Shown: in pieces, positions 2 to 18,195 of the stretch
Layout of the letters: each line of letters begins with the position of its first letter
Numbering within the stretch: position 1 is the first letter of the stretch
Source: Elusimicrobiota bacterium
GTDB lineage: Bacteria; Elusimicrobiota; Elusimicrobia; FEN-1173
Length of the DNA stretch: 34,652 nucleotides
Reading direction: 5' to 3'
Assembly: GCA_028278255.1 (NCBI GenBank)
Contig: JANQER010000057.1
Location: forward strand, 1 to 34,652
Position numbers and translations under genes: made by a program
Notes under the pieces: model-generated
Told to the model about the DNA's origin: nothing
Databases searched by the model: none
The model's input: the letters and a program-made list of their open reading frames with translations, nothing else

Positions 2-697
2 AGCCCGGCTTCATTGGTTATTGGCATGCCTGGTGAAACCAGTCAGACCATTGCCGAAACAACTGATTTTTTAGCCCAGGCCATGGAACACCAGCTTGAA
101 CCGCCGCATAAGCGGGTAAGCATCAACTACATTCAAGTGCTTCCCGGCACCCCTGTGTACGAATACGCTCGGGCCAAAGGGCATATTGGTACAACGCCGG
201 CAGAAGAAGAAAAATATCTGATTAAAATATCAGATGTGGACGCTTGTGAAGACACAAAGCTCATTAATTTAACAAGTGCTGACTACTTCACGCTCCAAAC
301 ATGGCGGCACCTCATGCTCTTGGAATTGGAAGTCCGTTGGTACAAGCGCCGTCAATGGAAAAAATTTGGCCCTGTGCCAATATCCGCTTATGAACGAAAG
401 GATTACCACACCCAAGGGTACTTTAACCTGAAAAAACTTATCAATCATCCGGCTTCCTACAGACTCATTTGGCCGGTCCGAAGGGTGTTTTATTTATGTT
501 ACGTGATTGTCAAGGATCTTATTAGAATGCCATTCAAACAAGTGATGGCATTGATGTGTGATTTAATAAAAAATCATTTGGGCCGCCGCCCGGAACGCTT
601 TGACTATAGATCACTCCGTAAAATTGTCAATGAATGGCCCAAAAAAAGCGCTACCTTGACGGAAAAAAACATGTGGATTTTGCGAGAAGGCCGGTAA
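2..697 (+). CDS. radical SAM enzyme, C-terminal fragment (5' end outside window)
   Basis: The frame stays open back to position 2. The translation VIGMPGETSQTIAETTDFL...INYIQVLPGTPVYEYA resembles the G-x-PGET segment after the radical SAM barrel. The same motif (MFGLPGETENDFNGLLDFL) recurs in the complete ORF at 7126-9060, so the two look paralogous. Confidence 0.6.
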   Translation, partial: SPASLVIGMPGETSQTIAETTDFLAQAMEHQLEPPHKRVSINYIQVLPGTPVYEYARAKGHIGTTPAEEEKYLIKISDVDACEDTKLINLTSADYFTLQTWRHLMLLELEVRWYKRRQWKKFGPVPISAYERKDYHTQGYFNLKKLINHPASYRLIWPVRRVFYLCYVIVKDLIRMPFKQVMALMCDLIKNHLGRRPERFDYRSLRKIVNEWPKKSATLTEKNMWILREGR

Positions 698-712
698 AAC
701 CAATCAGGAGCA

Positions 713-2629
713 TTGACGCGCATGTCAATAGGCACACTTTGCACAGACCCGTTTCTTCAGACGTATTTAAAAAACAAAGGCATACAAGCCCAAGTGTTTG
801 ACGCCCTCTTAACGCCTGCTGACAAGCAGGCCATGCTGGAGGCTCTTCATGATTTTGCGTCACATTGGTTTATGGATTCGCATGGAAATGACTACACTGA
901 ATACAGGGGCGTTTCCATCGGAAGCGCCATTCGTGACGAAATCATGACCCTTTTTTGCCTGTGGCTGCACATGGACAGGATCATGCGTCAGTGCCAGGGA
1001 CGTATGCCCAGCCATGTGTATCAGTCCGCTTCTTGTGAGTTTCCACCCATGGTTGAAAAATATTTTGCATTTCTCGGGTGCTCTCTTGCAACGGAAAACA
1101 TTGATTATCCCTATTTCAGCTTTAAAAAATTTCGTCATTACTATATTCGCAACAATCTCACTTACATCCCGCTTGCCGTGGACGGCGACACAACAAGCCG
1201 GTTTACCATACGCATTATTATCAAAAACATGATCAAGGCCGGCTTAATCAAACTATTGAATCTGGCTGGCGCCAACAAACCTTATTTCTATTGCCAGGTG
1301 CTCAGGCGGCTTGTTCCTTTTTATCAATCATACTTCACATCAGGAGCGTATAAAAAGACCGGGCTCAGGCTGATTCTCAATTCCCGAAAAATACCTGACA
1401 AGGACAGCCGGCGCACGGGTATTTTTGGCCGTTCGTTTGAAATCATTATGCTGCTTTTCAAGGGTGTGCGCCCAGAAATGATCACACCTATCGGGCCCTG
1501 GGAAGCAGAACCTTCTGACAGCCAAAAAAGCACAGCTTTCAAGACCCAGGTCCTGGCTGAATTCAAAAAAGTGTCTGCTTCGCTCTTGTCAAAGCTGGGC
1601 TTGGCGCATGGCGAATTTTTTGAAAAAGAATTCACCTTGTTTCTCAGCAACAACCTGTTGTCATTTGCCGGGCTCATTGACGTGTACTATAAAAAATTCG
1701 AGAATAAAAACTTTTTTGGCTCTGTTCAGGAGGTGGTGCCGTCTCTCCAGATGCAGGTGATGGCGCGCTGCAAAAAAAGAACTGTTTTGGTGCCGCCGAA
1801 TCAGATGCTTCACAATCAATACATGACAGCTCATGCGCTCAAAAAAACCCAAGGATACGTCAAAGTCATTGCCCTGTCTGACTATGACAAAACCCGATAC
1901 ATGCGGTTGGGGTTTAACCAACGAGATATCATAGTGGATGACAAATTGCTGCTGGACCGGTATAATGACACTCTCAGGCCTTTTAAACCCATGGACAACT
2001 TTAAAAACAAAAAGGTTCTTGTTATTCCGCCGTTTATCTACGCCCTTGACACATTTCGTCATTTATATGACAGTCGCTCATGCATAACTTATTTTAGAAA
2101 TTTGTTCAGTGTCTTAAATAGGGTTGGATGTATTGATGTTATTGTCCGACAGCATCCCGGAGTCGATAAAACGGGCATCAATAACAGAGGATATACAATG
2201 AAACATTTTTTTCAAAAGCTTTTGGACAATATTATGTCATCTAGTCAATTCTCCTTTTCTTTAAGTTATTCAGACAGTTTGTACAACAGACTGGCGCAGG
2301 ACGTGGAAAAATGCGATATAGTGATAGGCACAATCAGCGGAACCATTATGGAATCACTTGTTTTGGGAAGAGACTATATTGTCTATGATCAATCTGTCGC
2401 GCCTTTCCCTGGAAAGTTGGAAGGGTCAATTGTTCATGATGGGATTATAAAAAGATGCACAACAATGAAAGAGCTGGAAGAACGCGTCTTCAATTATGAG
2501 CCGATTGACCGGGATGCGTTGTTCAAAAAACACTACCCGGCTCTGTTAAAGAAACCCTCCCCAAAACGAGACTCCTATCAGGAGTTGCTGAAGCTTTTTA
2601 TGGGGCAGGAGGCAGTTCGGAACATATGA
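713..2629 (+). CDS. large orphan protein of the glycan locus, possibly a GT-B/capsule-synthesis-type transferase (function uncertain)
   Basis: 638-aa ORF starting 15 nt after the previous stop, with an alternative ATG at 722. Its stop overlaps the next start (ATGA at 2626). The C-terminal third (VLVIPPF...VIVRQHPG...CDIVIGTISGTIMESLVLG) resembles the nucleotide-sugar-binding half of KpsS/TagF-like transferases. I recognise no firm motif. Coding status is high; function is low confidence. Confidence 0.5.
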   Translation: MTRMSIGTLCTDPFLQTYLKNKGIQAQVFDALLTPADKQAMLEALHDFASHWFMDSHGNDYTEYRGVSIGSAIRDEIMTLFCLWLHMDRIMRQCQGRMPSHVYQSASCEFPPMVEKYFAFLGCSLATENIDYPYFSFKKFRHYYIRNNLTYIPLAVDGDTTSRFTIRIIIKNMIKAGLIKLLNLAGANKPYFYCQVLRRLVPFYQSYFTSGAYKKTGLRLILNSRKIPDKDSRRTGIFGRSFEIIMLLFKGVRPEMITPIGPWEAEPSDSQKSTAFKTQVLAEFKKVSASLLSKLGLAHGEFFEKEFTLFLSNNLLSFAGLIDVYYKKFENKNFFGSVQEVVPSLQMQVMARCKKRTVLVPPNQMLHNQYMTAHALKKTQGYVKVIALSDYDKTRYMRLGFNQRDIIVDDKLLLDRYNDTLRPFKPMDNFKNKKVLVIPPFIYALDTFRHLYDSRSCITYFRNLFSVLNRVGCIDVIVRQHPGVDKTGINNRGYTMKHFFQKLLDNIMSSSQFSFSLSYSDSLYNRLAQDVEKCDIVIGTISGTIMESLVLGRDYIVYDQSVAPFPGKLEGSIVHDGIIKRCTTMKELEERVFNYEPIDRDALFKKHYPALLKKPSPKRDSYQELLKLFMGQEAVRNI

Positions 2630-3402
2630 AAATAATTCGATATAAAAAATCAGAAACAGTGGATTCTTATGGATTGCTCGAGGGGCAAAGGATCGTCCCT
2701 ATTGTTGGGCCCCCTTATGGTCATTTAAATGAGCTGCAAAAAGAAAAGTCTATTGATTACAGTCAACATTTACTTCTTCCCCCCTGTGAACCCACAAAAA
2801 TTATTGCCTTGGCATTGAATTTTGAGGGGATAGATGGCCAGGAAAAAGACATTATTGAGCCGTTGGTTTTTCTCAAAAGCAGCAATGCTGTTGCTGGTAT
2901 AAATGACATCATTGAATTACCGTTTATCCAAAACACATGGGGTGAGCCTGAAATAGGCGCTGTTATAGGAAAAACAACAAAAGACATCTCAATGGATTTT
3001 GTTGATGAACACATATTAGGCTATACCCCTGCCAATGATGTCAGCTGTGATAATGTTAATAACCGTGACCATCATTTGCTACGGTCAAAAGCCGCTGATG
3101 GGTTCTGTCCCATTGGTCCTTATATAGAGACTGAATATGATCCAAATGGCAAGACGCTTGAAGCCTATCACAATGACCAATTAATCAGAAAAGGCAGCAC
3201 AGACGCCATGTTATGGGATTTAAAGAAAGCCATTCAATGGCTGTCCACATGGATAACACTTCACCCCGGTGATATTGTGTTGTCCGGGTGTCCGCCCTAC
3301 GTGCGTGACCCCTTGTATTTAATGCATGGCGATGTTTTTAAAGTCAAAATTCAGGGATTGCCAGCATTAACGACCCAATTCAAAAAAGGACAAAACACAT
3401 GA
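2626..3402 (+). CDS. fumarylacetoacetate hydrolase (FAH) family enzyme (2-oxo-acid hydratase/isomerase/decarboxylase type)
   Basis: Start overlaps the upstream stop. Motifs EPEIGAVIGK, GYTPANDVS, RSKAADGFCPIGPYI and ITLHPGDIVLSG are typical of the FAH/HpcE-like fold. Confidence 0.75.
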   Translation: MKIIRYKKSETVDSYGLLEGQRIVPIVGPPYGHLNELQKEKSIDYSQHLLLPPCEPTKIIALALNFEGIDGQEKDIIEPLVFLKSSNAVAGINDIIELPFIQNTWGEPEIGAVIGKTTKDISMDFVDEHILGYTPANDVSCDNVNNRDHHLLRSKAADGFCPIGPYIETEYDPNGKTLEAYHNDQLIRKGSTDAMLWDLKKAIQWLSTWITLHPGDIVLSGCPPYVRDPLYLMHGDVFKVKIQGLPALTTQFKKGQNT

Positions 3403-4286
3403 AATGTTTGATTTGTAAGCAAAAAAACTTCGCCCGTGTGAGTGAACGTATTAGAGAGGGAAAAAGAAACGTTTTTCAATGTCAGGGCTGTGGGTTTGTG
3501 TTTTTAGAGCCTATCAAAGACTCTGTTGACTACACCAAAGATTATGGCGCCAAGCTGTTTGATGATTCATGGGATTTAGATGCCGCTATGAAAGCAAGGG
3601 CTGAAAGCCTAAAAAAAACAATCGATGACATAGATCAAGAACTGATGCAAACACCGGGCTTACGTTGTTTAGAGATAGGCGCAGGGGTCGGGGCATCGGT
3701 TTACGGATTAAAACAAAAAAACAACAACTATGCGGTGGATGTTATCGAGCCCAATGCCAAGCTCAAAGACCATTTAACCTCAGTTTTTGATCCCATTAAT
3801 GTTTATACGTCTTTTTCTGATATTAAAAAAACCTATAACGCCATCTACGGCATACATGTGTTTGAGCATTTCCTTAAACCCTATGAACAGCTGGCCATTA
3901 TAGAAAAATGCGCTGCGCCCAAGGCCCGTTTGTACCTGCAGTTTCCCAATTGGGATGACTATTATCTTTCGACGCTTGAAGGTACAAGCCTGAGAAACTA
4001 TATAGAATTCATGCTCCATACTGCGCACGATTACTATTACTCCATCAAAAACATTGAGCGGCTTTTCAAACAGACCAACTGGGACATTGTCAAAATATGG
4101 ACCATGCAGGATTATTCAATTGCCAATTATTACCATTGGATATTTTGTGGGCAGCCAATGAAGAACATAGCTGTGGCCACAGAAATGGGCCATGAATTAA
4201 GAGAAGTGAACAATGTTTTTCACAAAGCTTTGGAACAATCCAGCCAAGGCAATAATCTTTGCTGTTTATTGCAGCGCAAAGATTAA
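3399..4286 (+). CDS. class I SAM-dependent methyltransferase with N-terminal CxxC...CxxC zinc ribbon (sugar C-/O-methyltransferase-like)
   Basis: ATGA overlap with the upstream gene. N-terminus has CLICKQ...CQGCGF. SAM motif I is LEIGAGVGAS. The architecture resembles NDP-sugar methyltransferases. Confidence 0.7.
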   Translation: MKCLICKQKNFARVSERIREGKRNVFQCQGCGFVFLEPIKDSVDYTKDYGAKLFDDSWDLDAAMKARAESLKKTIDDIDQELMQTPGLRCLEIGAGVGASVYGLKQKNNNYAVDVIEPNAKLKDHLTSVFDPINVYTSFSDIKKTYNAIYGIHVFEHFLKPYEQLAIIEKCAAPKARLYLQFPNWDDYYLSTLEGTSLRNYIEFMLHTAHDYYYSIKNIERLFKQTNWDIVKIWTMQDYSIANYYHWIFCGQPMKNIAVATEMGHELREVNNVFHKALEQSSQGNNLCCLLQRKD

Positions 4287-4328
4287 AATCAATTTTTTAA
4301 CAGCACATTTATTGAGCACGGAGGTTAT

Positions 4329-5093
4329 ATGAAAACAGTTGTTGGTATTCCGGCGCGTTTGGGTTCTTCACGTTTTCCTGGCAAGCCTCTCAAAGACATA
4401 TGCGGCAAGCCCATGATTGAGCATGTGTTTCGGCGATGTGAGCTGTCTGATATGATTGACTATGCATTTATTGCCACTTGCGATGAGGAAATAAAAAAAT
4501 GGGCTGAAAAAGCAGGCTGCCGTGTTGTCATGACCAGCCCGGACATTGAGCGGCCGGGTCTGCGCGTGGCAGAGGCATGTAAAGGCCTTGGATTAAACGA
4601 TGATGACATTGTTGTGATTGTGCAAGGAGATGAACCCTTGGTGCATCCTGACATGATGAATGTGGCCATTCAACCCTTGCTGGAGGATGACAATGTTTTT
4701 TGTGTTAACCTTGGGGCTGACATGACTGAGGATCAATGGCAGGATCCCAATGAAATAAAAATGGTTTGTGACAAAAACATGAACGCACTTTACATGTCCA
4801 GAAGTCCGATCCCTTCCCGGGTCCATCCGGAAAAACCTTTTATCGGCCCCAGATGGCGTCAAGTCTGCATCATGCCTTTCCGAAAAAAATCATTGCTGCA
4901 GTTTCAGGAAATGGCGCCCTGTCCTTTGGAAAAAGCCGAATCCATAGAAATGCTGCGGGCCATTGAGCATGGGCTGATCGTGCGCATTGTCAAAAGTCCG
5001 TCACTCAGCAAATCCGTTGATAATGAAGCAGACAGATTGGAAGTGGAAAAAATAATGAAAAACGATTTGATATACGAAAAACATGGTTTTTAA
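4329..5093 (+). CDS. KdsB-like cytidylyltransferase (CMP-ulosonic acid synthetase family)
   Basis: The N-terminus MKTVVGIPARLGSSRFPGKPLKDICGKPMIEHV is the signature P-loop of CMP-Kdo/acylneuraminate cytidylyltransferases. The internal VQGDEP motif is present. GGAGG RBS lies 6 nt upstream. Confidence 0.8.
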   Translation: MKTVVGIPARLGSSRFPGKPLKDICGKPMIEHVFRRCELSDMIDYAFIATCDEEIKKWAEKAGCRVVMTSPDIERPGLRVAEACKGLGLNDDDIVVIVQGDEPLVHPDMMNVAIQPLLEDDNVFCVNLGADMTEDQWQDPNEIKMVCDKNMNALYMSRSPIPSRVHPEKPFIGPRWRQVCIMPFRKKSLLQFQEMAPCPLEKAESIEMLRAIEHGLIVRIVKSPSLSKSVDNEADRLEVEKIMKNDLIYEKHGF

Positions 5094-5105
5094 AAAGGAG
5101 GTCCC

Positions 5106-5864
5106 ATGAGACCCAACACATTGCTTAAAAAAATAAAAGCAGGGCAGCCTATTTTAGGCACATGGTCAATGACTTGTTCGCGAGCTGTTGTGGAAGCCAT
5201 GGGATATGCTGGGCTTGATTTTGTCATTATTGATATGGAACACGGTGTCATGTCTATGGAAACAGCCGAAGATCTTGTGCGTGCTGCTCAGGTCTCAGGA
5301 TGTCAGCCCATTATCCGGCTTGGCAATGCTGATGAATCCCTGATACTCAAAGCGCTTGAAACCGGTTGTGGCGCGCTCATGATTCCGCATGTGTCCACGC
5401 CAGCACAGGCCCAAAAAATAGTGCAGGCCTGTAAATACGCGCCTGAAGGCACGCGCGGGTTATCGCCTTACACGCGGCCGCACGAATTTGACCATGCCAA
5501 CATACAAAAAAGCATGGCTGAAAACAACAAAGACACGTTTGTGGGTGTTTTGGTAGAAGGGGAGGCAGGCATCAAAAATCTGGAATCCATTGCCCAGGTG
5601 CCTGGCTTAGACATGATCTACACCGGGATATTTGACATTTCCCAGGTCATGGGCGTGCCAGGTCAGCTGGACCACCCAAAAGTCATGGACACGCAAAAAA
5701 AATGCGTGGCTGCCTGCAAATCCAACAATGTGATGCCAGGCACCTTTGCGCGGGATGAAAACTGTTTGAAAGAAACCAAGGAGATGGGCTATCAATTCAT
5801 TGCCTATTCTTGCGATTCACATGTCCTTAAAAAATCCTATAAAGCTATCGCAGATGCATTTTAA
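5106..5864 (+). CDS. HpcH/HpaI family class II (pyruvate-dependent) aldolase
   Basis: LGTWSMTCSRAVVEAMGYAGLDFVIIDMEHG and MIPHVSTPAQAQ are characteristic of 2,4-dihydroxyhept-2-ene-1,7-dioate aldolase-like enzymes. AAGGAGG RBS lies upstream. Confidence 0.8.
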   Translation: MRPNTLLKKIKAGQPILGTWSMTCSRAVVEAMGYAGLDFVIIDMEHGVMSMETAEDLVRAAQVSGCQPIIRLGNADESLILKALETGCGALMIPHVSTPAQAQKIVQACKYAPEGTRGLSPYTRPHEFDHANIQKSMAENNKDTFVGVLVEGEAGIKNLESIAQVPGLDMIYTGIFDISQVMGVPGQLDHPKVMDTQKKCVAACKSNNVMPGTFARDENCLKETKEMGYQFIAYSCDSHVLKKSYKAIADAF

Positions 5865-5936
5865 TTTTTTTGGCAACAGCAACCATATGGGAAGAAAATT
5901 TATTGTCTTTTAGGAAAGTCTGAAGGGGAATGATTT

Positions 5937-7004
5937 ATGTCAACAGAACAGAATAAGTTAAAATATGTACAGTTTTTACAGAATAGAAGTAAAGAAGAAG
6001 CAAAGACTATATATTATCAGAGGATAAAAGACGCTAAACATATTTTTCAAAAACATAGAGATTCATTTTTTATTCGTAATTGTCCGTTCTGTGATTCACC
6101 TGATTTTCGAAATTTAGAGAAATTTCATGATACTTATGATGTAAGCGCCTGTAACCGCTGCTCCGGTTGTTTTGTTAACCCTGTTCCGAGTTTAGAAGCG
6201 TTAAATGATTATTATAATAATTCTAAATGCAATATTTTGCAGCATAATTTAGTTAGAAAAAGAAAAAGTAAATCTAGTGATTTCATAGTTGATGATAGGG
6301 TCGTGAAAGTTATCGATTATATCGTATCTAAAAAGCACAAAAATCAAGAAAAAATTAGGATTCTAGAAGTGGGTTGCGGCTCTGGTTCTTTTTTATCAAA
6401 ATTAAAGAAATCAATTGAGTCTTCATTTAAGAATAAATATTGTATTGAGTATTGTGGTATAGATATTGACAAAAACGCAATCGATTCAAAAGTAGATAAT
6501 AATCTTAATCTTGTGCATAGTAGTATTGAAGACTTTACGCAACGATACGGTGGTTTGTTTGATATAATTTTACACTTTGAACTAATTGAACATCTCATTG
6601 ATCCATTTCGCTTTATGAGAGATTCCAAAAAACTATTAAGAAAAAATGGGGTTATGATCTTTACTACGCCAAACCATAATGGAGCTGAAATAGTGGCATC
6701 GGATTATAATTCATATCGACTGCTGGCACACAGCATCTTTCCCCCTATGCACTTAAATGCTTTCAGTATTATAAATATTTTGCATTTTGCAATCAGATGT
6801 GAATTTAATGTGGTAGATATATCAACGCCAGGCAAGCTTGATGTTAGTATGATTACTGAAACAAAAGAATATTTAAGAGATATAGGATTCAAAACATTAG
6901 CATGCCTTAATGATGAAACTAAGGGAATAATTCAATATTTGTTATCAAAGTTAAAAGTAAGTAGCCATATGTTATGTGTATTAGAGTCTAGCAGGGAAGA
7001 CTAA
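5937..7004 (+). CDS. class I SAM-dependent methyltransferase with N-terminal zinc ribbon, sitting in an AT-rich island
   Basis: CPFCDS...CNRCSGCF zinc ribbon, then SAM motif I LEVGCGSGSF. Sampled 60-nt stretches are about 27-30% GC, against about 45-58% in the neighbouring genes. Confidence 0.75.
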   Translation: MSTEQNKLKYVQFLQNRSKEEAKTIYYQRIKDAKHIFQKHRDSFFIRNCPFCDSPDFRNLEKFHDTYDVSACNRCSGCFVNPVPSLEALNDYYNNSKCNILQHNLVRKRKSKSSDFIVDDRVVKVIDYIVSKKHKNQEKIRILEVGCGSGSFLSKLKKSIESSFKNKYCIEYCGIDIDKNAIDSKVDNNLNLVHSSIEDFTQRYGGLFDIILHFELIEHLIDPFRFMRDSKKLLRKNGVMIFTTPNHNGAEIVASDYNSYRLLAHSIFPPMHLNAFSIINILHFAIRCEFNVVDISTPGKLDVSMITETKEYLRDIGFKTLACLNDETKGIIQYLLSKLKVSSHMLCVLESSRED

Positions 7005-7125
7005 GAGTTATAACCAAAAGTTGTGGGTGAAGTGATTTAAGAAGATGTAAAAAAAGCGTAGCCTGTCTGGTGAAATCAAACAAAAACCGGTGGTAAGAGC
7101 CACCGAAACCCAGAAGGATACGCTC

Positions 7126-9060
7126 ATGAATAAAAACAAATTAGATGAAGGGAAAAATCCAGAAGAAAATAAGAAAAATCGCCAAACAACAGGAGTTCAT
7201 ATGGAAGTGGTATTGTTGCAATTGCCGTTTTGGGGCGTTGGCTGCCCGCCGTTGGGATTGGCCCTGTTGAAAAGTTATCTGGGACAAAACAACATCTCTT
7301 GCCGGATATTTGATGTCAATGCACAAGCCTTTTGTCTGCGCGGGAAAAAATTTCATGACTATTGGGATATGCAACACGGCATCAACTATTCCATGGATGA
7401 AGAAATTGTCGCGCGCTATTATCATGACAACCGGGCTTTATTCCTTTATTACATAGGTGAAATAATAAAATTAGACCCCAAAGTTGTCGGTGTTTCCTGT
7501 CAGGGCACAAGCTTGATCATGAACAAGTTGTTTTTACGGGATTTAAGAAAAAATTGTCCAGGGATCAAACATGTCATGGGCGGTCCTGAAGTGGCATTTT
7601 TTATGAACAATGCCGAAAGATTATTGTCGTCAGGCTATGTGGATGCCGTTAGCCTTGATGAGGGAGAAAAAAGTCTGCTGCAATATGTTGGCAATATCAC
7701 AGCCGGGATTGTTAAACCGGTGGAGGGAATGGTTTTAAAAGAGCAAGATGCCATCGTGAAGGGGGGGGTAGCGACGCCCATTAAAAACCTAAATGATTTG
7801 CCATTCCCTGATTACGATGATTTTGATTTTAATCAATACGTGTCCAATAGGACATTGGGGAGCTACACCTCAAGAGGCTGCATCAATCAATGCATGTACT
7901 GCACGGCAAAAAATTTTATGAAAACTTTTCGATTCAGGAGTGCTCAGAGGATTTTTGAAGAAATTGTGCATCTGAGAAAACGATATCCTCAAATTGACAC
8001 CATACGATTTTGTGACAACATCTCAAATGCCAACATTCGGGAACTCGATAAATTTTGTGATTTGCTGATCAGCAATAACGTCAAAGTCCATTGGAATCTG
8101 GAAAACGCTGTGATGCGCAAAGAAATGGCATTGCCGTTATACAAAAAATTAAAAAAAGCCGGTTGTCAGTTAATCGGCTATGGCATGGAAACTTCTTCCC
8201 CGGCGTTATTGGACAAAATCGGAAAGACATTGTCAAAGGGGTTGGATCTATCGCGTGTGTTGCGCGAAGGGAAAAAAGCCGGTATATATATGTGTGTGAA
8301 TGTTATGTTTGGCTTGCCCGGGGAGACCGAAAATGATTTTAACGGATTGCTGGATTTCCTGAAACATAACAGAAAATACATTAGCATGATTAACCCCTCT
8401 ATCACATTCTGTGAATTCTATCCTGGTTCAGACGGCTATCAGACCCCTGAAAAATTCGGAATTAATTTGAAAAAAGGATCTCTCTTTTGGGAGTCAACAG
8501 ATGGAAAAAACACGTACCCTGTCCGGATGAAGCGTTTTGAGTTGTTTTGTTCAAGATCAAGGGCTTACAAGTTGGACAATTTGATTGATGTCGAGGAGTT
8601 GCCCAATAAAGATGTGCTGATGTTTAAATACTATTGTCAGAGTGGGATGTTAGATGAGGCGCATGAGGCGTATCGCCGGATCTCCCCGGAATTCCGTACA
8701 CGATCAATACAAAGCATATATCAAGCGGCAAAAAAGGGGGACTCAGTCGTAGAAAACCAGGAGGAGGTCGTAAACGCAGTGCCTTTTTTGCAAGGTAAGA
8801 CTTTTAAAGAAACGCTGCTAAAAAACGCGCTGGCTGATTTTATTCAAAACTTGGAAAAAGATGATCCCTTTAAAGACGACTTTATGAAACCCTGGAAAAA
8901 AAAGCTAAGAAAAATGTTTCATCGGATCATCGGATACGATAAAATAGACAAAAAAATCAATTCAGTTTATGCCCTTGTTAAAATGGTTGACAACAAAATT
9001 ATGTTTTCACAAAAACCAACAGACCACGCCGGTGGTCCCTATCATGTCAAGAGTGGTTGA
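7126..9060 (+). CDS. B12-binding-domain radical SAM enzyme
   Basis: N-terminal VVLLQLPFWGVGCPPLGLALLKSYL (cobalamin-binding-like Rossmann segment). CxxxCxxC cluster motif SRGCINQCMYCTA, and GLPGET. The track starts at GTG 7090, but ATG 7126 has an AGAAGGA RBS 8 nt upstream, so I prefer it. Confidence 0.85.
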   Translation: MNKNKLDEGKNPEENKKNRQTTGVHMEVVLLQLPFWGVGCPPLGLALLKSYLGQNNISCRIFDVNAQAFCLRGKKFHDYWDMQHGINYSMDEEIVARYYHDNRALFLYYIGEIIKLDPKVVGVSCQGTSLIMNKLFLRDLRKNCPGIKHVMGGPEVAFFMNNAERLLSSGYVDAVSLDEGEKSLLQYVGNITAGIVKPVEGMVLKEQDAIVKGGVATPIKNLNDLPFPDYDDFDFNQYVSNRTLGSYTSRGCINQCMYCTAKNFMKTFRFRSAQRIFEEIVHLRKRYPQIDTIRFCDNISNANIRELDKFCDLLISNNVKVHWNLENAVMRKEMALPLYKKLKKAGCQLIGYGMETSSPALLDKIGKTLSKGLDLSRVLREGKKAGIYMCVNVMFGLPGETENDFNGLLDFLKHNRKYISMINPSITFCEFYPGSDGYQTPEKFGINLKKGSLFWESTDGKNTYPVRMKRFELFCSRSRAYKLDNLIDVEELPNKDVLMFKYYCQSGMLDEAHEAYRRISPEFRTRSIQSIYQAAKKGDSVVENQEEVVNAVPFLQGKTFKETLLKNALADFIQNLEKDDPFKDDFMKPWKKKLRKMFHRIIGYDKIDKKINSVYALVKMVDNKIMFSQKPTDHAGGPYHVKSG

Positions 9061-9072
9061 TGAACGAGGGAG

Positions 9073-10008
9073 ATGAATGTGCCAAAATATAAAATACTGA
9101 TCGCCACAAGCTCATTTGGAGATTACGATAGCGCGCCTCTGGCTCATCTGCGGGATCAGGGGTATGAGGTGGCTCTCAACCCTTTTAAAAGAACGCTCAA
9201 AAGCCAAGAAATTGTCCAGTTGGCGCAAGGTTGCATGGGCATACTGGCCGGAACCGAACCCTATACCTCGGACATCTTTGAACAGTTGCCTGCGTTACGA
9301 GTGATCAGTCGGTGCGGTGCTGGGTTAGACACTGTGGATGTGCAGGCTGCTGACAAAAAAGGCATTGCGGTTTTTTCGACGCCGTATGGTCCCACACAAT
9401 CCGTGGCAGAGCTTACAGTGGGAATGGTCATGAGCCTGATCCGCGGGGTACAAACATCCTGTGCCCGAATGCGGCGTGGTTCTTGGAAAAAAGACATGGG
9501 CTATCTGTTGTCCGAGCTCCCCATGGGCATCATTGGCCTCGGACGAATAGGAAAAACAGTTGCAGAAATTTTAAAACGTCTGGGCGCATCTGTGTCAGGG
9601 TGTGATCAGCAACCGGACACGGTTTGGGCTGCTCAAAATGGCATTGGCCTCAAAGAAAGAGACCAAATTCTTAAAACCAATAGAGTGATCTGTTTGCATA
9701 TTTCCTATGATCAGAAAACGCGTCATTTTCTCGATTCAAAAGCAATGTCCATGATGATGCCTGGAAGCTTTGTCATCAACACATCTCGCGGTGGTCTGGT
9801 GGATGAAGGCGCTTTGGTTCAGGCCTTAACATCCGGCCATTTGGCCGGCGCCGCATTGGATGTGTTTGAGCAGGAGCCATATCAAGGCCCGCTCAAAGAT
9901 CTGGACAACGTGATTCTCACGCCGCATATTGGTTCGTACGCGCGCGCAGGCCGGATAAAAATGGAGACAGAAGCAGCCAACAACCTCATTACAGCATTGA
10001 ACGCATAA
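9073..10008 (+). CDS. D-isomer-specific 2-hydroxyacid dehydrogenase (phosphoglycerate dehydrogenase-like)
   Basis: NAD-binding GIIGLGRIGKTVA, then INTSRGGLVDE and the catalytic region TPHIGS. GAGGGAG RBS upstream. Confidence 0.85.
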   Translation: MNVPKYKILIATSSFGDYDSAPLAHLRDQGYEVALNPFKRTLKSQEIVQLAQGCMGILAGTEPYTSDIFEQLPALRVISRCGAGLDTVDVQAADKKGIAVFSTPYGPTQSVAELTVGMVMSLIRGVQTSCARMRRGSWKKDMGYLLSELPMGIIGLGRIGKTVAEILKRLGASVSGCDQQPDTVWAAQNGIGLKERDQILKTNRVICLHISYDQKTRHFLDSKAMSMMMPGSFVINTSRGGLVDEGALVQALTSGHLAGAALDVFEQEPYQGPLKDLDNVILTPHIGSYARAGRIKMETEAANNLITALNA

Positions 10009-10013
10009 TTTTT

Positions 10014-10922
10014 ATGGGAAGGAGGACTCTCTTGAAAGCAATTGTCTATGGTGGATCAGGGTTTCTCGGAAGTCACGTGGCTGATGTCCTGACAAAGAAA
10101 GGGAATCAGGTGACTATTTTTGATGTTAAGGCTTCTCCCTATCTTCAAAAAGGGCAGAAAATGATCGTGGGTGATATCCTGGATGAAAAAAAAGTGGCGC
10201 AATCCATTAAAGGCCAAGATGTCGTGTATAATTTTGCCGGTTATTCAGATATAGAATTGGCTAGTAGCCATCCTTTGGAAACAGTCAAAGCCAATATCCT
10301 CGGAAATTGTATAATTCTCGAACAGGCCAAACAGCACAAAATCAAACGATATGTTTTTGCCAGCTCTGTTTATGTCTACAGTGCGGCAGGCTCATTTTAC
10401 AGGGCCAGTAAGCAAGCGTGTGAAGCTTATATAGAAACATACGCCAAGGTCTATGGTTTGCCTTACACCATTCTTCGCTTTGGCTCCCTCTATGGGCCGC
10501 GTTCCAACCAACAAAGCGGGATCAACATGCTTCTCAAGCAGGCGATAGAAAAAAAGAAAATTGTCTACTGGGGAACCGGGGAAGAAACCCGGGAATATGT
10601 GCATGTGCATGACGCTGCGATTTGCAGTGTCGACATCTTGGACAAAAAACACACAAACGCATGTGTGCTCATTACCGGCAACCAATCAATAAAAATAAAA
10701 GATTTGCTTTGCATGATCCGTGAAATAATGGACCACAAGATTCACATTCAGTGCCGACCGGGGGCCCGGCCGGACCTGTCTGATCTCCATTATGTCATCA
10801 CGCCCTACTCTTTTATGCCCAAAGAAGGCAAAAAACTTTTGCACGCACCTTATACGGATCTTGGCCAGGGGCTTCTAAGTCTTATGGCTGAAATATACGC
10901 TGAAAAAAACGACAAGGACTAG
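10014..10922 (+). CDS. NAD-dependent epimerase/dehydratase (extended SDR)
   Basis: GGSGFLGSHV Rossmann motif and YRASKQACE (YxxxK). A TTG at 10032, preceded by GGAAGGAGGA 6 nt upstream, may be the true start. Confidence 0.85.
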   Translation: MGRRTLLKAIVYGGSGFLGSHVADVLTKKGNQVTIFDVKASPYLQKGQKMIVGDILDEKKVAQSIKGQDVVYNFAGYSDIELASSHPLETVKANILGNCIILEQAKQHKIKRYVFASSVYVYSAAGSFYRASKQACEAYIETYAKVYGLPYTILRFGSLYGPRSNQQSGINMLLKQAIEKKKIVYWGTGEETREYVHVHDAAICSVDILDKKHTNACVLITGNQSIKIKDLLCMIREIMDHKIHIQCRPGARPDLSDLHYVITPYSFMPKEGKKLLHAPYTDLGQGLLSLMAEIYAEKNDKD

Positions 10923-10928
10923 GACGCA

Positions 10929-11567
10929 ATGCCTGAAGAATCCGCGCAAACAATCCTATTTGATTTTGACGGTGTTATTTTGGAATCAGCTGGCATCAAA
11001 ACTTGGGCTTTCGGAGAGCTCTTCAAAAAATATCCGCGGCACAAAGAACAGATTGTGGCGCATCACAAAAAAAATATGGGTGTTTCCAGGTTTAGGAAAT
11101 TCGATTACATTTATCGTCACATACTCAAACAGCCTGTGTCTTCAGCACAGAAACAAAAATTAGGAGCTCTTTTCTCGCGACTGGTATTGAACAAAGTGCT
11201 GAACTGCCCGATGGTTCCCGGGGTTCTGGCTTTCATAAAAAAATTCAGCCGAAAAAAGGATTTTTTTATAGTATCCGGCACCCCTCATAAAGAATTGTGT
11301 TATATTGTCAAAAAACGTGGATTAAAAAAATACTTTAAAGGCATTTACGGCTCTCCGCCTTTAAAAGAAACAATCATTTCAACATTACTGCAAAAGCACA
11401 AATGGAAGCGTCAGAGTGTTCTTTTTATCGGAGACGGGGTTTCTGACTGGAAGGCTGCAAGAAAAAATAAAGTTCCTTTTATCGGACGGGTCATGTCCGG
11501 TAAAAGCCCGGTTTTCCCCCAACGAACCAAAACCATAAAAAATTTTAAAAGATTTAATCCTTTTTAA
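10929..11567 (+). CDS. HAD-superfamily hydrolase (phosphatase/phosphomutase-like)
   Basis: Motif I ILFDFDGVILES (DxDG), VSGTP (motif II-like) and a late GDGVSD motif. Confidence 0.75.
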   Translation: MPEESAQTILFDFDGVILESAGIKTWAFGELFKKYPRHKEQIVAHHKKNMGVSRFRKFDYIYRHILKQPVSSAQKQKLGALFSRLVLNKVLNCPMVPGVLAFIKKFSRKKDFFIVSGTPHKELCYIVKKRGLKKYFKGIYGSPPLKETIISTLLQKHKWKRQSVLFIGDGVSDWKAARKNKVPFIGRVMSGKSPVFPQRTKTIKNFKRFNPF

Positions 11568-11579: not shown

Positions 11580-12569
11580 ATGTCAATCACCGTGTCTGTG
11601 ATTGTTCCGGTTTTCAATGGCGACAAATATATCAAAGAATGCCTGGACAGTGTTCTGACGCAAAGGCGCGCGCCCGATGATGTCATTGTGATAGATGATG
11701 GGTCCACTGACTCAACCCCTGCTGTGCTCGGGTTTTACAAAGAAAAAATTCGTGTGATACAAACAGCCAATCAAGGGGTGGCCTTGTCACGCAATCAAGG
11801 CATAAAAGCGGCCAAAGGACAATACTTGGCTTTCCTGGACGCCGATGACAGGTGGCATCCTGACAAACTCTATGTTTATGAAAAAGAAGCTGAGCAGCAT
11901 CCTGAATCTGCGCTCTTTTTTTCAGATGCGTGGACGATTTCTTCACAAGGAGAACGGCAGGGACTGATTCATAGACCTCTCCCTTCTGGGAAAGCATTAT
12001 ACAAAGCGCTTATAACAAAAAATTTTGTGATCACATCCACATCCATGATTCGTGCGGATGTGGTTCAAGCCATCGGATATTTTAGAGAGGATTTTAAATG
12101 CAAGGCAGGCGTGGAGGATTGGGAGTTTTTTCTGCGAGTGGTCAAGCGGTTCCCGGCCACGTATATCCCTAAGCCTTTAACGGATTATCGGATTCATCCT
12201 GCCAGCGCCATGCAAACAAAGCGATTTGACTTAAAAGAAGATGGCTTAAAAGCTTTGTCTTTTCATATGAATGATCCCGGTATTTTGCCAGAAGAAAAAA
12301 GCAAAGCCAGTGCGTTTATTCATTACTGGAGCGGGGTGCGGCATTTGGTGGCGTTGGACATAAAGCCGGCGCGCAATGATTTTATGCAAAGCCTCAAAAA
12401 CACGGATTACTTTCTAAAAAGTTTTATGTTTATCATCCTCACATTGTGTGGCCCTGGGCCAACGGGGTTTTTCCTCAGACTTCACCGTTGGCGTAAACAA
12501 ATTTGGTTTAGATTAAAAAGTAGTTTTACAAAACAACAGGAGAAAAACATTGAAGATACCTCTTCTTGA
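11580..12569 (+). CDS. family 2 glycosyltransferase (GT-A)
   Basis: VSVIVPVFNGDKYIKECLDSVLTQ, VIVIDDGSTD and the FLDADD (DxD) motif. The C-terminus carries a hydrophobic segment. Confidence 0.85.
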   Translation: MSITVSVIVPVFNGDKYIKECLDSVLTQRRAPDDVIVIDDGSTDSTPAVLGFYKEKIRVIQTANQGVALSRNQGIKAAKGQYLAFLDADDRWHPDKLYVYEKEAEQHPESALFFSDAWTISSQGERQGLIHRPLPSGKALYKALITKNFVITSTSMIRADVVQAIGYFREDFKCKAGVEDWEFFLRVVKRFPATYIPKPLTDYRIHPASAMQTKRFDLKEDGLKALSFHMNDPGILPEEKSKASAFIHYWSGVRHLVALDIKPARNDFMQSLKNTDYFLKSFMFIILTLCGPGPTGFFLRLHRWRKQIWFRLKSSFTKQQEKNIEDTSS

Positions 12570-13680: not shown

Positions 13681-14804
13681 TGAAAATCACACACATCATT
13701 ACCGGCCTCTCCACTGGCGGGGCTGAAACCATGTTGTATAAGCTCTTAAAGCACATGGACAGGTCCAAGTTTTTGTGCGAGGTTATTTCACTCACTGATT
13801 TAGGTCCTGTGGCGCAGGATATCAAATCTTTGGGTGTCTCTGTTCAGGCACTAGGCATGAGCCGGGGGATTCCTGATCCCCGGTATTTATGGAAGCTCAT
13901 TCGAATTATTCGCAGGCATCAGCCTTGCATTGTTCAAACCTGGATGTACCATTCTGATTTGATTGGTGGCTTATCTGCAAGATTGGCCGGGAAGATTCCT
14001 GTGATCTGGAATCTCCGCCAAAGCAACCTCAGCGCACAAGTCAACAAGAAGCTCAGCTTGCTCACGGCGAAAATATGCGCCTGGTTTTCCGGTATTCTCC
14101 CGGACAAAATTCTATGTAATTCAGAAGCAGCTCGACAGGCACATATCAAATTTGGTTACCAATTAGGGCCGATCATGGTCATCCCCAATGGATTTGATCC
14201 TTCAACATTCAAACCAGATGCCTCCGCAAGAAGCTCAGTGCGCCAAGAGCTGGGGATCTCACAGACGGCTCTTGTGATCGGGCTGGTGGGAAGATTTGAT
14301 CCGCAAAAAGACCATAGAACTTTTCTTCAGGCCATGGGGCTGTTAAAGAAATAATTTCCTCAAATCAGATGTGTTCTTTGTGGAGATGGCATTGACAACG
14401 AGAACACTGAGCTGGCTCAGTGGATCAGACAGGCAGCGGCGGATGATATTGTCAGCTTATTAGGCTGCAGGCAGGACATGGCGCGTCTGACAGCCTCTTT
14501 TGATATAGCGGTATCTTCTTCTTGCGGAGAAAGCTTTTCCAATGCCATTGGAGAGGCCATGGCTTGCGAAGTCCCCTGCGTGGTGACTGATGTCGGAGAG
14601 TCAGCCAAGATTGTCGGGGACACCGGTCTGGTGGTGGCGGCTCAAAATCCTGAAGCCCTGGCATTGTCCTGCGAAAAAATCATAACCTTGCCTGAAAGCG
14701 AAAAACAAAAAATGGGACAATCCTCTAGGCAGCGAATAAACGATCATTACAGTATTCAATCCATTGCTCGGCAATATCAGAGTCTTTATGAATCAATGCT
14801 TTAA
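13677..14804 (+). pseudogene. GT4 (GT-B) glycosyltransferase interrupted by a single in-frame TAA at 14352-14354
   Basis: Track ORFs 13677-14354 and 14478-14804 share one frame. Reading through the TAA gives ...FLQAMGLLKK*FPQIRCVLCGDGIDNENTELAQWIRQAAADDIVSLLGCRQDMARLTASFDIAVSSSCGESFSNAIGEAMACEVPCVVTDVG..., a continuous GT4 sequence including the E-x7-E region. Confidence 0.7.
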
Positions 14805-14835
14805 CCATAATGGGTGCCATTTTCATCACTATTCA

Positions 14836-14917: not shown

Positions 14918-14971
14918 TTAGATGTTTGAATGGGCACAAATTTTCTCATATTGAGTAGAGGAATTTTTCGC

Positions 14972-15934: not shown

Positions 15935-15964
15935 CCTGTGTTTTCCCAATCGAAAGGCATTGAC

Positions 15965-18174: not shown

Positions 18175-18195
18175 AAATTTCATGAAAACAATATT

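Follow-up and report, generated by a model that had tools for sequence, protein, structure and literature searches.

The window analysed here is an entire contig of 34.6 kb from a coral metagenome, representing a deep uncultured lineage. All the genes described below lie on the + strand. The contig begins with the 3' portion of a putative radical SAM gene, truncated by the contig start (14..697), whose membership in the pathway is uncertain, and with a gene for a putative GT-B-fold transferase of 638 amino acids (713..2629). The following nine genes form a co-directional string (2626-11567). They encode an FAH-family enzyme of the HpcE/HpaG / 2,4-diketo-acid subgroup (2626..3402; PF01557 FAA_hydrolase, 4.5e-37), a class I SAM methyltransferase, MT1 (3399..4286; PF13489 Methyltransf_23, 5e-13), a KdsB-like CTP:2-keto-sugar-acid cytidylyltransferase, CMPT (4329..5093; PF02348 CTP_transf_3, 1.1e-46), an HpcH/HpaI class II metal-dependent 2-oxoacid aldolase, ALD (5106..5864; PF03328 HpcH_HpaI, 4.8e-36), a second class I SAM methyltransferase, MT2 (5937..7004; PF13489 and PF08242, 5e-18), a B12-binding radical SAM enzyme (7090..9060; PF02310 B12-binding and PF04055 Radical_SAM), a PGDH-like D-2-hydroxyacid dehydrogenase, HADH (9073..10008; PF02826 2-Hacid_dh_C, 1.1e-49), an extended SDR of the epimerase/dehydratase fold (10014..10922; PF01370 Epimerase, 1.8e-41) and a HAD-superfamily phosphatase (10929..11567; PF13419 HAD_2, 2.4e-14). 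Genes overlap by 4 nt at 2626-2629 and 3399-3402, and the gap between CMPT and ALD is 12 nt. Thus, the genes named in the original prediction, their positions, common direction and partial overlaps were all borne out by the ORF positions and by strong Pfam matches. Downstream, Pfam matches identified a GT2 (11580-12569), a DegT aminotransferase (12550-13680), a GT4 (13677-14804), in which tblastn alignment and translation revealed an in-frame TAA at 14352-14354, and an RmlD-like reductase (14930-15934). These genes (11580..15934) are the surface-glycan context of the cassette.

ALD scored below all the NCBIfam equivalog cut-offs considered (HpaI, GarL and RhmA). Its residues H46, R71, E151 and D177, which we take to be equivalent to H45, R70, E149 and D175 of HpaI, were nearly invariant among 75 homologues (H46 retained in 74), and ALD is proposed to be the C-C bond-forming 'synthase' of the cassette. 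The earlier idea that the aldolase and the cytidylyltransferase belong together was upheld when aldolase neighbourhoods were surveyed: pairing with CMPT was found for 69 of 116 distinct homologues, although this and the other locus counts are inflated by ~25 closely related Nitrosomonadaceae. The window ALD falls within a monophyletic clade in which all 26 distinct members have CMPT within 1.5 kb; the clade spans at least 8 phyla and includes the cultured Aestuariibacter salexigens and Leptospira abararensis. Two further aldolase clades are paired with CMPT, namely type 2 (candidate phyla and archaea) and type 3 (cultured Nitrosomonas/Nitrosospira). In the same aldolase-anchored survey (n = 116), no member of a large clade from Nitrososphaerota and Bacteroidota was paired with CMPT. 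Because the pairing recurs so often, and without exception in the clade of the window, it is not due to chance, and the results support ALD and the KdsB-like cytidylyltransferase as a dedicated, widely conserved pair.

The window was also predicted to lack a KdsA/NeuB-type synthase, and this held: profile searches of its ORFs gave no match to the NeuB and DAHP/KDO8P-synthase families, and a tblastn search of the window with KdsA of E. coli and a NeuB likewise gave none. Further, KdsA was found in none of the 161 loci examined, and NeuB-like genes were present in only 14 of them.

CMPT retains the catalytic residues of KdsB (R10, R15, K19, Q98, D100, E210 and D235). Relative to the E. coli enzyme, H181 is replaced with Q, Y185 with M and S74-G75 with R-P. 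H181 and Y185 are Kdo contacts, and both are retained in five solved KdsB/KpsU structures, in contrast to the window CMPT. The score of CMPT against the kdsB equivalog TIGR00466 (152.6) was under the cut-off of 155.2, and the CMPT clade occurs in haloarchaea, Methanoperedens, Dehalococcoidia, Anaerolineales and Parcubacteria; among the lineages represented, haloarchaea, Chloroflexota and Parcubacteria are without LPS. As predicted, CMPT therefore stands apart from housekeeping KdsB and, judged by its sequence, is not a canonical CMP-Kdo synthetase; since the Kdo-contact residues are changed, its substrate is probably not Kdo.

A phosphatase was present in 29 of 33 aldolase-bearing loci, compared with 1 of 25 aldolase-less loci, and is supplied by at least four unrelated families. 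The window HAD has orthologues, 38-50% identical, in Nitrosomonadaceae and some further loci; elsewhere this type is exchanged for unrelated HAD families or an inositol-monophosphatase-family protein. The HAD phosphatase is a proposed counterpart of KdsC. Because the phosphatase tracks the aldolase, the acceptor of the aldolase is more likely a phosphorylated aldehyde than the sugar aldehyde that had been predicted; the aldolase-based route itself gained partial support from the conserved ALD-CMPT pair, the absence of KdsA and the scarcity of NeuB.

We propose, with a probability of roughly 0.5, that positions 713-11567 form an operon-like cassette devoted to making a CMP-activated 2-keto sugar acid ('ulosonic acid') for incorporation into a surface glycan. 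The scheme would parallel the Kdo pathway, except that a class II aldolase takes over from the PEP-dependent synthase. ALD would first join a 2-oxoacid donor to a phosphorylated aldehyde, forming the C3-C4 bond. The donor could be pyruvate, or hydroxypyruvate derived from 3-phosphoglycerate through the PGDH-like dehydrogenase and a phosphatase, and candidate acceptors are glyceraldehyde-3-P, erythrose-4-P and a pentose-5-P. In vitro, glyceraldehyde, erythrose and ribose are all substrates of HpcH aldolases, some of which can also use hydroxypyruvate (PMC7610986). As suggested by the co-occurrence of phosphatase and aldolase, the HAD phosphatase would then remove the phosphate and allow the acid to close into a ring; the KdsB-like enzyme, with its conserved catalytic residues, would couple CMP to the anomeric C2-OH. 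The proposed order of aldolase, phosphatase and CMP-transferase resembles that of the Kdo pathway; in the window, methylations would follow, with O- and C-methylation by MT1, MT2 and the B12-radical-SAM enzyme, possibly on the CMP-sugar. The FAH enzyme and the SDR may act on pathway intermediates, and both the sugar itself and the parts played by FAH, HADH and SDR are put forward tentatively. The proposal is also favored by other neighbours of the same CMPT clade that could provide a 2-keto acid, namely a galactonate dehydratase in Halobellus (610 bits) and, in the type 4 loci, HADH with a sugar-dehydrogenase/GT2 fusion. The gene string thus looks like an undescribed route to an acidic cell-surface sugar resembling sialic acid or Kdo; we found no published description of such a pathway in the literature. 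The cassette recurs across dozens of bacterial and archaeal lineages, and its activating enzyme is labelled CMP-Kdo synthetase in databases.

Some observations do not favor an aldol step. PEP-dependent synthases have a driving force that aldol addition lacks. Further, 25 of 58 loci of the CMPT clade, including one with a CMPT 65% identical to that of the window, have no aldolase inside 10 kb, indicating that the aldolase is not obligatory for this class of substrate. An HADH is found no more than 7 kb from CMPT in 47 of the 58 loci (15 of these without any aldolase), compared with 33 for the aldolase, and CTP_transf_3::2-Hacid_dh fusions exist. The linkage of HADH to CMPT is therefore more constant than that of ALD, and this, together with the fusion, is compatible as well with an oxidative rather than an aldol origin of the backbone. 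The best NCBIfam match of HADH is PGDH (207 bits; cut-off, 454), and its best solved relatives are the 3-phosphoglycerate dehydrogenases of P. horikoshii (2e-52) and human (1e-47). Because HADH is PGDH-like and follows CMPT even without an aldolase, it may supply a precursor, such as hydroxypyruvate from 3-phosphoglycerate, or form the 2-keto group; its role is thus probably different from the tailoring of the product that was originally assigned to it.

It is accordingly possible, although we regard it as unlikely, that a hexose- or heptose-phosphate backbone is oxidized without any aldol step. The SDR would oxidize C1 to a lactone, a lactonase would open it, HADH would oxidize C2 of the phospho-aldonate to a 2-keto-aldonate, HAD would dephosphorylate it and CMPT would activate it; ALD and FAH would do no more than remodel the acid (by C3 epimerisation or an exchange, for example) or would belong to a side branch. 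Such a route would account for the gene order of type 4 loci, [cyclase-family hydrolase]-CMPT-HADH-(GT2 + Zn-dependent sugar/alcohol dehydrogenase), and for a true 6-phosphogluconolactonase (162 bits; cut-off, 124) whose gene overlaps the HAD gene of a Nitrosomonas cassette and for which the aldol model does not account. It is also consistent with locus L243, where a set of Gfo/Idh/MocA, SIS, HADH and inositol-monophosphatase-family genes replaces SDR, HADH and HAD. The SDR matches the SDR-type glucose-6-P dehydrogenase Azf, but only weakly (28-43 bits) and far under the cut-off. Its best solved relatives are UDP-hexose 4-epimerases (only 1e-25), and orthologues (46-57% identity) are found alongside HADH and HAD in loci of types 1a and 3 and in some of type 2; the SDR may have a tailoring function or act as a sugar-phosphate dehydrogenase. 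However, oxidation leaves unexplained the catalytically intact ALD, which in types 1-3 accompanies CMPT more constantly than any other gene and is usually directly adjacent. Type 2 loci consist of ALD, HAD and CMPT, usually without HADH or SDR, and the phosphatase follows the aldolase, not HADH. The type 4 HADHs are only 30-34% identical to that of the window and may act differently.

Less probable still is that ALD, HADH, the phosphatase and the methyltransferases together produce a 3-deoxy-aldonic acid, reduced and O-methylated, that decorates another sugar through an acyl or ether linkage, with CMPT acting on some other ulosonic acid whose synthesis is encoded elsewhere in the genome. In the structure quoted in PMC13439194, the flagellin nonulosonic acid of Treponema denticola bears a 2-methoxy-4,5,6-trihydroxyhexanoyl group, which is formally pyruvate plus glyceraldehyde, reduced at C2 and O-methylated. 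Clear roles would follow for HADH (reduction of the 2-oxo group) and a methyltransferase, and a NeuB-type pathway adjoins the cassette in some loci (L002 and L243). However, NeuB-bearing loci also hold a second, NeuA-type cytidylyltransferase for that sugar, and CMPT would have no local substrate in the window and most related loci because NeuB and KdsA are absent there. Further, the conserved core contains no acyl-activating enzyme (ligase, ATP-grasp or acyltransferase), and CMPT directly adjoins ALD in 69 loci.

In fosfomycin biosynthesis, a B12-radical-SAM methyltransferase acts on an intermediate that has been cytidylylated. By analogy, CMP might be a transient handle on a small-molecule intermediate rather than part of a glycosyl donor, the product being a methylated keto or hydroxy acid that is secreted or stays in the cytoplasm. 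Both enzymes are indeed encoded in the window and in 13 related loci, but we consider this very improbable: most cassettes, and every one of type 3, lack the radical SAM enzyme, there is no conserved hydrolase that would release CMP, and the loci are rich in glycosyltransferases, flippases or ABC exporters and O-antigen ligase, with a flagellin in one.

A housekeeping CMP-Kdo synthetase lying by chance beside a catabolic HpaI/GarL-type aldolase and an FAH enzyme of aromatic- or sugar-acid degradation would agree with the names '3-deoxy-manno-octulosonate cytidylyltransferase' (JGI and NCBI) for CMPT and '4-hydroxy-2-oxoheptanedioate aldolase' (JGI) for ALD, with the score of CMPT against subfamily NF003952 (240.6; cut-off, 193) and with the FAH and HpcH pairs typical of the homoprotocatechuate pathway, but it is close to refuted by the altered Kdo contacts and sub-threshold kdsB score of CMPT, the conservation of its pairing with ALD across phyla including LPS-less lineages and archaea, the embedding of the genes in a glycan locus, the lack of any catabolic-pathway dioxygenase, dehydrogenase or transporter among the genes noted in the window, and the accompaniment of canonical kdsB, where seen, by kdsA and a SIS isomerase.

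FAH is specific to the cluster type of the window: type-1 loci with enough sequence upstream of ALD carry a homologue (37-45% identity) there, at a distance of 1.4-6.5 kb, and the only gaps are two loci cut short upstream. Among solved structures, FAH is closest to HpcE/HpaG and 5-carboxymethyl-2-hydroxymuconate isomerase; L-2,4-diketo-3-deoxyrhamnonate hydrolase ranks lower. MT1, whose family is present in 9 related loci, is presumably an O-methyltransferase of the sugar. MT2 is an accessory gene, with a GC content of 30.6% (40-50% in neighbouring genes) and homologues in only two other loci. The product of 7090..9060 is a presumed C-methyltransferase; its best NCBIfam matches are B12-rSAM C- and P-methyltransferases, each under the cut-off. 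The gene at 14..697 had no Pfam match; it starts at the contig edge with a 'GMPGET...' stretch, which we take to be the C-terminal half of a radical SAM enzyme, and has tblastn matches in two other loci (L035 and L038; 35-36%).

Within the proposed ulosonic acid pathway, the final transfer of the sugar might be performed by the GT-B-like protein encoded at 713-2629, the stop codon of which overlaps the FAH start. This protein had no match in Pfam or NCBIfam and only 35 relatives among 1.8 billion representative proteins. Using hhalign, we matched it (probability 96.5%, E 8e-10) to a family of ~610 aa, f3, which is located after ALD/CMPT in other loci and matches TIGR04326 'surface carbohydrate biosynthesis protein' under the cut-off. 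Its AF2 model was poor (pLDDT 57), and the Foldseek matches were mostly of GT-B type (TarL, OtsA, KpsC and NeuC; TM 0.23-0.28), with some dehydrogenases. This remote profile match and poor model tentatively suggest a candidate CMP-sugar-using transferase. In several locus types, CMPT is accompanied by members of this GT-B-like superfamily (f3, g4, g47 and the 638-aa protein, orf638); MptE/Maf-like proteins are also found with it.

All nine ORFs of the original prediction were recovered on the forward strand in the positions it had assigned, with strong matches to their families. They encode an FAH-family protein (2626-3402), a class I methyltransferase (3399-4286), a KdsB-like cytidylyltransferase (hereafter CMPT; 4329-5093; PF02348, 1.1e-46), an HpcH/HpaI class II aldolase (ALD; 5106-5864; PF03328, 4.8e-36), a second methyltransferase (5937-7004), a B12-binding radical SAM enzyme (7090-9060), a D-2-hydroxyacid dehydrogenase (HADH; 9073-10008), an extended SDR (10014-10922) and a HAD phosphatase (10929-11567). 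The FAH start codon is overlapped by the stop of a 638-amino-acid ORF of no recognised family on the same strand (713-2629), and downstream of the phosphatase gene the string runs on into genes that Pfam assigned to GT2, DegT, GT4 and RmlD-like families. The absence of a KdsA- or NeuB-type synthase from the window, also predicted, was confirmed by zero Pfam matches among the ORFs (KdsA, as DAHP_synth_1, or NeuB) and zero tblastn matches. Further, Pfam scans of the window ORFs revealed no kdsC or waaA, and no PEP mutase or other phosphonate genes.

ALD possesses H46, R71, E151 and D177, which we take to be equivalent to the catalytic tetrad of HpaI. These residues were kept in essentially all of 75 homologues (H46 in 74 of the 75). 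The roles of the catalytic His and Arg and of the metal-binding Glu and Asp of class II aldolases have been described (PMC7610986). Although ALD shares its family and the catalytic His, Arg, Glu and Asp with HpaI, GarL and YfaU/RhmA, these enzymes serve degradation, whereas the genes around ALD belong to glycan biosynthesis. ALD also scored below all equivalog cut-offs (HpaI, 142.5 versus 368.8; GarL, 132.5 versus 393; RhmA, 102.6 versus 441), and in the tree the cassette aldolases formed separate clades, with E. coli GarL and YfaU outside that of the window's ALD.

With ALD as the single query sequence, scanning reference genomes gave no matches; an alignment-based scan, with one genome per species, gave 80 loci. 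We constructed a neighbour-joining tree from 116 distinct aldolases; three of its clades correspond to locus types 1 to 3, and a fourth locus type has no aldolase. In the clade that includes the window's ALD (type 1), CMPT was encoded within 1.5 kb of the aldolase for all 26 sequences, on the upstream side in the loci checked, and the pairing of the two genes is a conserved one. This clade spans Pseudomonadota, Desulfobacterota, Nitrospinota, Chloroflexota, Patescibacteria, Spirochaetota, Bdellovibrionota and Ignavibacteria, and its cultured carriers include Aestuariibacter salexigens and Leptospira abararensis. The FAH protein, which belongs to the subgroup handling 2,4-dioxo acids, was restricted to type 1 loci. 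In the type 2 clade (Margulis/Saganbacteria, Atribacterota, Planctomycetota, Omnitrophota, Altiarchaeota and Hydrothermarchaeota), CMPT lies directly downstream of the aldolase. The type 3 clade consists of Nitrosomonas and Nitrosospira, with cultured carriers N. europaea, N. eutropha and N. multiformis, and its gene order CMPT-ALD-HADH-SDR-HAD comprises the same five families as the window. A large aldolase clade from Nitrososphaerota, Bacteroidota and others is without CMPT. NeuB-like genes were present in 14 of 161 loci. RNA-seq contigs of N. europaea (4.6-17.6 kb; longest in runs 25-60 kb) spanned the homologous cassette, lengths that prove neither an operon nor a lack of DNA carry-over.

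CMPT has the CTP_transf_3 fold and retains all seven catalytic residues (Arg10, Arg15, Lys19, Gln98, Asp100, Glu210 and Asp235 in E. coli numbering), as does the whole type 1 CMPT clade. Its sugar pocket is altered. His181 and Tyr185, which are kept in E. coli KdsB and in five solved KdsB/KpsU proteins, are replaced by Gln and Met in the window and the type 1 clade, by Gln and Ile in types 3 and 4, and by Met and Val in type 2. Further, Ser74-Gly75 is Arg-Pro in the window. In KdsB (CMP-Kdo synthetase, EC 2.7.7.38), Tyr185 hydrogen-bonds the C5 hydroxyl of Kdo, and His181 is an active-site residue (PMC12199768). The only model whose cut-off CMPT passed was that of a broad subfamily (NF003952; 240.6 against 193); it fell just under the cut-off of TIGR00466 (152.6 against 155.2) and did not reach that of NF003948 (163.6 against 281). 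Public data held more than 120 clusters of CMPT-like proteins at 57-71% identity, and those with names are called CMP-Kdo synthetase. The CMPT clade was found in haloarchaea, Methanoperedens, Thermoplasmatales, Dehalococcoidia, Anaerolineales and Parcubacteria, none of which, to our knowledge, has Kdo-containing LPS. A tblastn search with E. coli KdsA gave no matches in the window and 161 related loci; in contrast, the canonical kdsB on a Streptomyces plasmid adjoins kdsA and a gene for a SIS protein. Judged by its pocket residues, equivalog score and partners, CMPT is not a housekeeping KdsB.

Plasmids were also searched for a relative that has been characterised, and canonical kdsA-SIS-kdsB sets were all that came up. 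The annotated kdsA-SIS-kdsB set on the linear plasmid of Streptomyces sp. NBC_00963 (L247:8569-10744) lies beside genes for a P450 and a terpene synthase, and a Kdo-type sugar in a natural-product setting is possible in this Gram-positive organism.

Co-occurring genes were counted in the 58 CMPT-anchored loci that had 4 kb or more on each side. About 25 of these are closely related Nitrosomonadaceae, so that the counts are not independent. An aldolase gene lay within 4 kb of CMPT in 33 loci. HADH was encoded within 7 kb of CMPT in 47, comprising 32 of the 33 aldolase loci and 15 aldolase-free loci. Phosphatase genes were present in 30 loci, 29 of which were aldolase loci, and no fewer than four unrelated families supply them: that of the window's HAD, a HAD family f13, a HAD_2 family f9 and an inositol-monophosphatase-family protein (L243). 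This pattern is as expected for a required dephosphorylation tied to the aldolase. Loci of subtype 1b lacked a phosphatase and encoded instead an AroB-related phospholyase together with Gfo/Idh/MocA, SIS and SDR proteins. The former, a 'cyclizing sugar-phosphate phospholyase' (for example, L016:13654-14739 and L009:6441-7502; TIGR04425, 471 bits, over the cut-off), replaces the phosphatase beside ALD-CMPT; the SDR of these loci is classical. The product of subtype 1b may be a carbocyclic or terminally deoxygenated variant.

The best family match of HADH was PGDH (207 bits, below the cut-off of 454), and its nearest solved structures are PGDHs (2e-52). The HAD phosphatase gene adjoins it, and the sole aminotransferase encoded nearby is a DegT-type sugar aminotransferase. 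HADH is in places fused with a cytidylyltransferase domain (group g46): a 593-amino-acid protein (L186:10787-12565; also L165, L207 and L218) carries an N-terminal CTP_transf_3 and a C-terminal D-2-hydroxyacid dehydrogenase domain, and so links the two activities in the Rosetta-stone sense. In the aldolase-free type 4 loci, CMPT adjoins HADH and a GT2/Zn-dehydrogenase fusion, and a cyclase-family hydrolase is frequently encoded as well; in Halobellus, also aldolase-free, it adjoins a bona fide galactonate dehydratase (610 bits), the product of which is 2-keto-3-deoxygalactonate. These neighbours could supply a 2-keto acid. The galactonate dehydratase gene of Halobellus clavatus (L220:8706-9881, reverse strand) is divergent from the adjoining KdsB-like cytidylyltransferase gene, with a GT2/Zn-dehydrogenase fusion and an ABC exporter nearby, and the locus looks like an aldolase-free route to CMP-2-keto-3-deoxyhexonate.

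Two further gene associations were observed. The HAD gene of the CMPT-ALD-HADH-SDR-HAD cassette shares its last 16 nt with a 6-phosphogluconolactonase gene in N. europaea (L204:11145-11828) and at further Nitrosomonas loci, a feature for which an aldol model gives no explanation. Type 2 loci conserve a 585-amino-acid fusion of a DmpG-like domain (HMGL, 4-hydroxy-2-oxovalerate aldolase-like) with an MptE/Maf-like domain (for example, L029:6438-8192 and L037:6806-7813); its gene adjoins that of an LdpA-like 4Fe-4S protein, and both lie directly upstream of HAD-ALD-CMPT. A 257-amino-acid CMPT neighbour (g72), considered as a DmpG-type aldolase in place of the HpcH type, was rejected, since Pfam assigned it to the MptE/Maf-like half of this fusion and not to the aldolase half.

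In loci of types 1 and 2, ALD/CMPT is in many cases followed by a family of about 610 amino acids (f3), which matches TIGR04326 ('surface carbohydrate biosynthesis protein') under the cut-off. Profile comparisons related f3 to the ORF at 713-2629 (a remote match, probability 96.5%), to a 440-amino-acid protein divergent from CMPT in Nitrosomonas and to four further large proteins of related loci. The ORF at 713-2629 matched no Pfam family, and its AF2 model, from four sequences, was poor (pLDDT 57). The fold matches of this model were mostly of the GT-B type, at TM scores of just 0.23-0.28, and among these were TarL and KpsC, a beta-Kdo transferase; a few dehydrogenases also matched. Taking these matches as a hint alone, we regard the ORF as a putative transferase. 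MptE/Maf-like domains, which define the family of the Campylobacter flagellin nonulosonate transferases, adjoin CMPT in some loci. The Aestuariibacter cassette adjoins flagellin genes and a NeuB cluster, and that of Nitrosomonas an O-antigen-ligase-like gene and GT2 genes.

From family memberships, intact catalytic residues, an altered sugar pocket and conserved gene partnerships, all read from sequence, we infer a pathway of five steps. ALD would link a 2-oxoacid donor with a phosphorylated aldehyde; the phosphatase would release the hydroxyl required for ring closure; CMPT would make the CMP-glycoside; the methyltransferases and the B12-radical-SAM enzyme would decorate the sugar; and the GT-B-like protein would transfer it. 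Class II aldolases are used in vitro for both 2-oxo-3-deoxy and 3,4-dihydroxy-2-oxo sugar acids. Two donors are conceivable. Pyruvate and an aldose phosphate would give a 3-deoxy acid, strictly Kdo-like. Alternatively, the PGDH-like HADH and a phosphatase would convert 3-phosphoglycerate to hydroxypyruvate, leading to a 3-hydroxy-2-ulosonic acid; this model would account for the joint occurrence of HADH, phosphatase and aldolase, and for the aldolase-free loci that bear HADH and share the CMPT clade. In vitro, HpcH aldolases accept glyceraldehyde, erythrose, ribose and polyhydroxy aldehydes, and hydroxypyruvate serves as a donor (PMC7610986).

We read the cassette as one that makes a CMP-ulosonic acid by means of another kind of synthase, recruited more than once; the window would be a further type 1 member with added C-methylation. 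In its full form, this reading proposes an unrecognised class of CMP-activated 2-keto sugar acids (6-8 carbons, 3-deoxy or 3-hydroxy, often O- and C-methylated), the skeleton of which would be built by a class II aldolase that replaced KdsA/NeuB in at least three independent recruitments. Members of the class would occur in more than 15 phyla of Bacteria and Archaea, its activating enzymes would be mislabelled CMP-Kdo synthetase, and the window would add B12-radical-SAM C-methylation to it. We give this full form a probability of about 0.45.

The strongest rival is an oxidative route, in which the SDR, a lactonase and HADH would convert a sugar phosphate via a lactone and a phospho-aldonate to a 2-keto-aldonate. 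This route is supported by genes of the lactonase type (Pgl in Nitrosomonas and, elsewhere, cyclase-family proteins) and by the linkage of HADH with CMPT. It assigns no role to the ever-present aldolase, and type 2 loci do not fit it. A model in which the cassette would make a side chain was prompted by the flagellin sugar of T. denticola, which is reported to bear a 2-methoxy-4,5,6-trihydroxyhexanoyl group (PMC13439194). This is unlikely, as an acyl-activating enzyme is missing and CMPT would be left without a local substrate.

In the fosfomycin pathway, Fom1 contains a cytidylyltransferase domain and the B12-radical-SAM methyltransferase Fom3 acts on a CMP-linked substrate. The cassette similarly pairs a cytidylyltransferase with a B12-radical-SAM methyltransferase, which suggests that the CMP-linked compound may be the one that is C-methylated. 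However, the cytidylyltransferase family of the fosfomycin pathway is presumably not that of CMPT, and the radical SAM enzyme of the cassette is accessory rather than core; a 'CMP handle' model of the fosfomycin kind is poorly supported. So is the reading of a housekeeping KdsB beside a catabolic aldolase.

A CMP-ulosonic acid cassette would resemble the Kdo pathway (the SIS isomerase KdsD, the PEP-dependent Kdo8P synthase KdsA, the HAD phosphatase KdsC, and KdsB) in several respects: CMPT has the fold and catalytic residues of KdsB, a phosphatase step is implied, a SIS isomerase is encoded in some related loci, and a CMP-linked 2-keto acid sugar is the expected product. It differs in having a class II 2-oxoacid aldolase where KdsA would be (KdsA in 0 of 161 loci), in phosphatases that are not of the KdsC type, in the additional PGDH-like dehydrogenase, SDR, FAH and methyltransferases, in the replacement of the Kdo-contacting His181 and Tyr185, and in its occurrence in organisms without LPS. 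The Neu5Ac, Kdn, legionaminic and pseudaminic acid pathways (NeuB and NeuA types) likewise yield CMP-activated alpha-keto acid sugars for surface or flagellar glycans. Unlike theirs, the predicted synthase of the cassette comes from another family and would act by metal-enolate aldol addition, without PEP, and the cassette's cytidylyltransferase belongs to the KdsB branch, not the NeuA branch. Loci with both a NeuB pathway and the cassette have a separate cytidylyltransferase for each.

Full-text searches, which covered few subscription papers, found no paper joining an HpcH aldolase with a KdsB-like enzyme, and an earlier description is possible. The textbook routes to Kdo and to sialic, legionaminic and pseudaminic acids that we know of all begin with a PEP-dependent synthase, and for this reason genome surveys for such sugars target NeuB/KdsA. 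If our reading is true, these surveys overlook CMP-linked keto-acid sugars in many organisms, LPS-less bacteria and archaea among them, and 'CMP-Kdo synthetase' is the wrong name for thousands of proteins. It would also provide candidate enzymology for ulosonic and ulosaric acids of unexplained origin. The nucleotide form and enzymes of Dha in plant RG-II are given as unknown (PMC12168206), and unassigned CMP-linked alpha-keto acids were detected by mass spectrometry in Magnetospirillum (bioRxiv 10.64898/2026.04.20.719630); as a lead only, these are the kind of product that the cassette could make. Carriers in culture (Nitrosomonas europaea, Nitrosospira multiformis, Aestuariibacter salexigens and Leptospira abararensis) allow a direct test of the reading, and the cassette aldolases may be useful as biocatalysts for rare ulosonic acids.

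Several other features of the window were observed. The GT4 gene (13677-14804, forward strand) is divided by a single in-frame TAA at 14352-14354 into two ORFs (13677-14354 and 14478-14804); a homologue aligns straight through this codon, which may reflect a pseudogene, a sequencing error or read-through. The GC contents of the second methyltransferase gene (5937-7004; 30.6%) and a transglutaminase-like gene (15938-17002; 35.8%), against 40-50% in their neighbours, suggest accessory genes lately acquired within the glycan locus. An ORF that begins at the contig edge (14-697, forward strand; 'GMPGET...') resembles the C-terminal half of a radical SAM enzyme; if so, the locus has a second, cut-off radical SAM gene. 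Promoter scans gave predictions no better than those for shuffled sequences, and terminator scans were uninformative. The window spans a coral-metagenome contig from end to end. Its remainder (17128-34652) is housekeeping in character and encodes a PGA_cap-like protein and a class A PBP, both on the reverse strand, together with a DUF2142/PMT_2 membrane protein, a four-CBS-domain protein, a GDSL hydrolase, a tetrapyrrole methylase, ArgC, ArgJ and a Sua5/YrdC-family protein. A Firmicute host, as the PGA_cap, PBP and arg genes might suggest, was rejected on the evidence of ArgJ: among reference genomes, its best match was 51% identical, in an Elusimicrobia MAG, with 41-47% identity to many phyla, and the host therefore belongs to a deep uncultured lineage.
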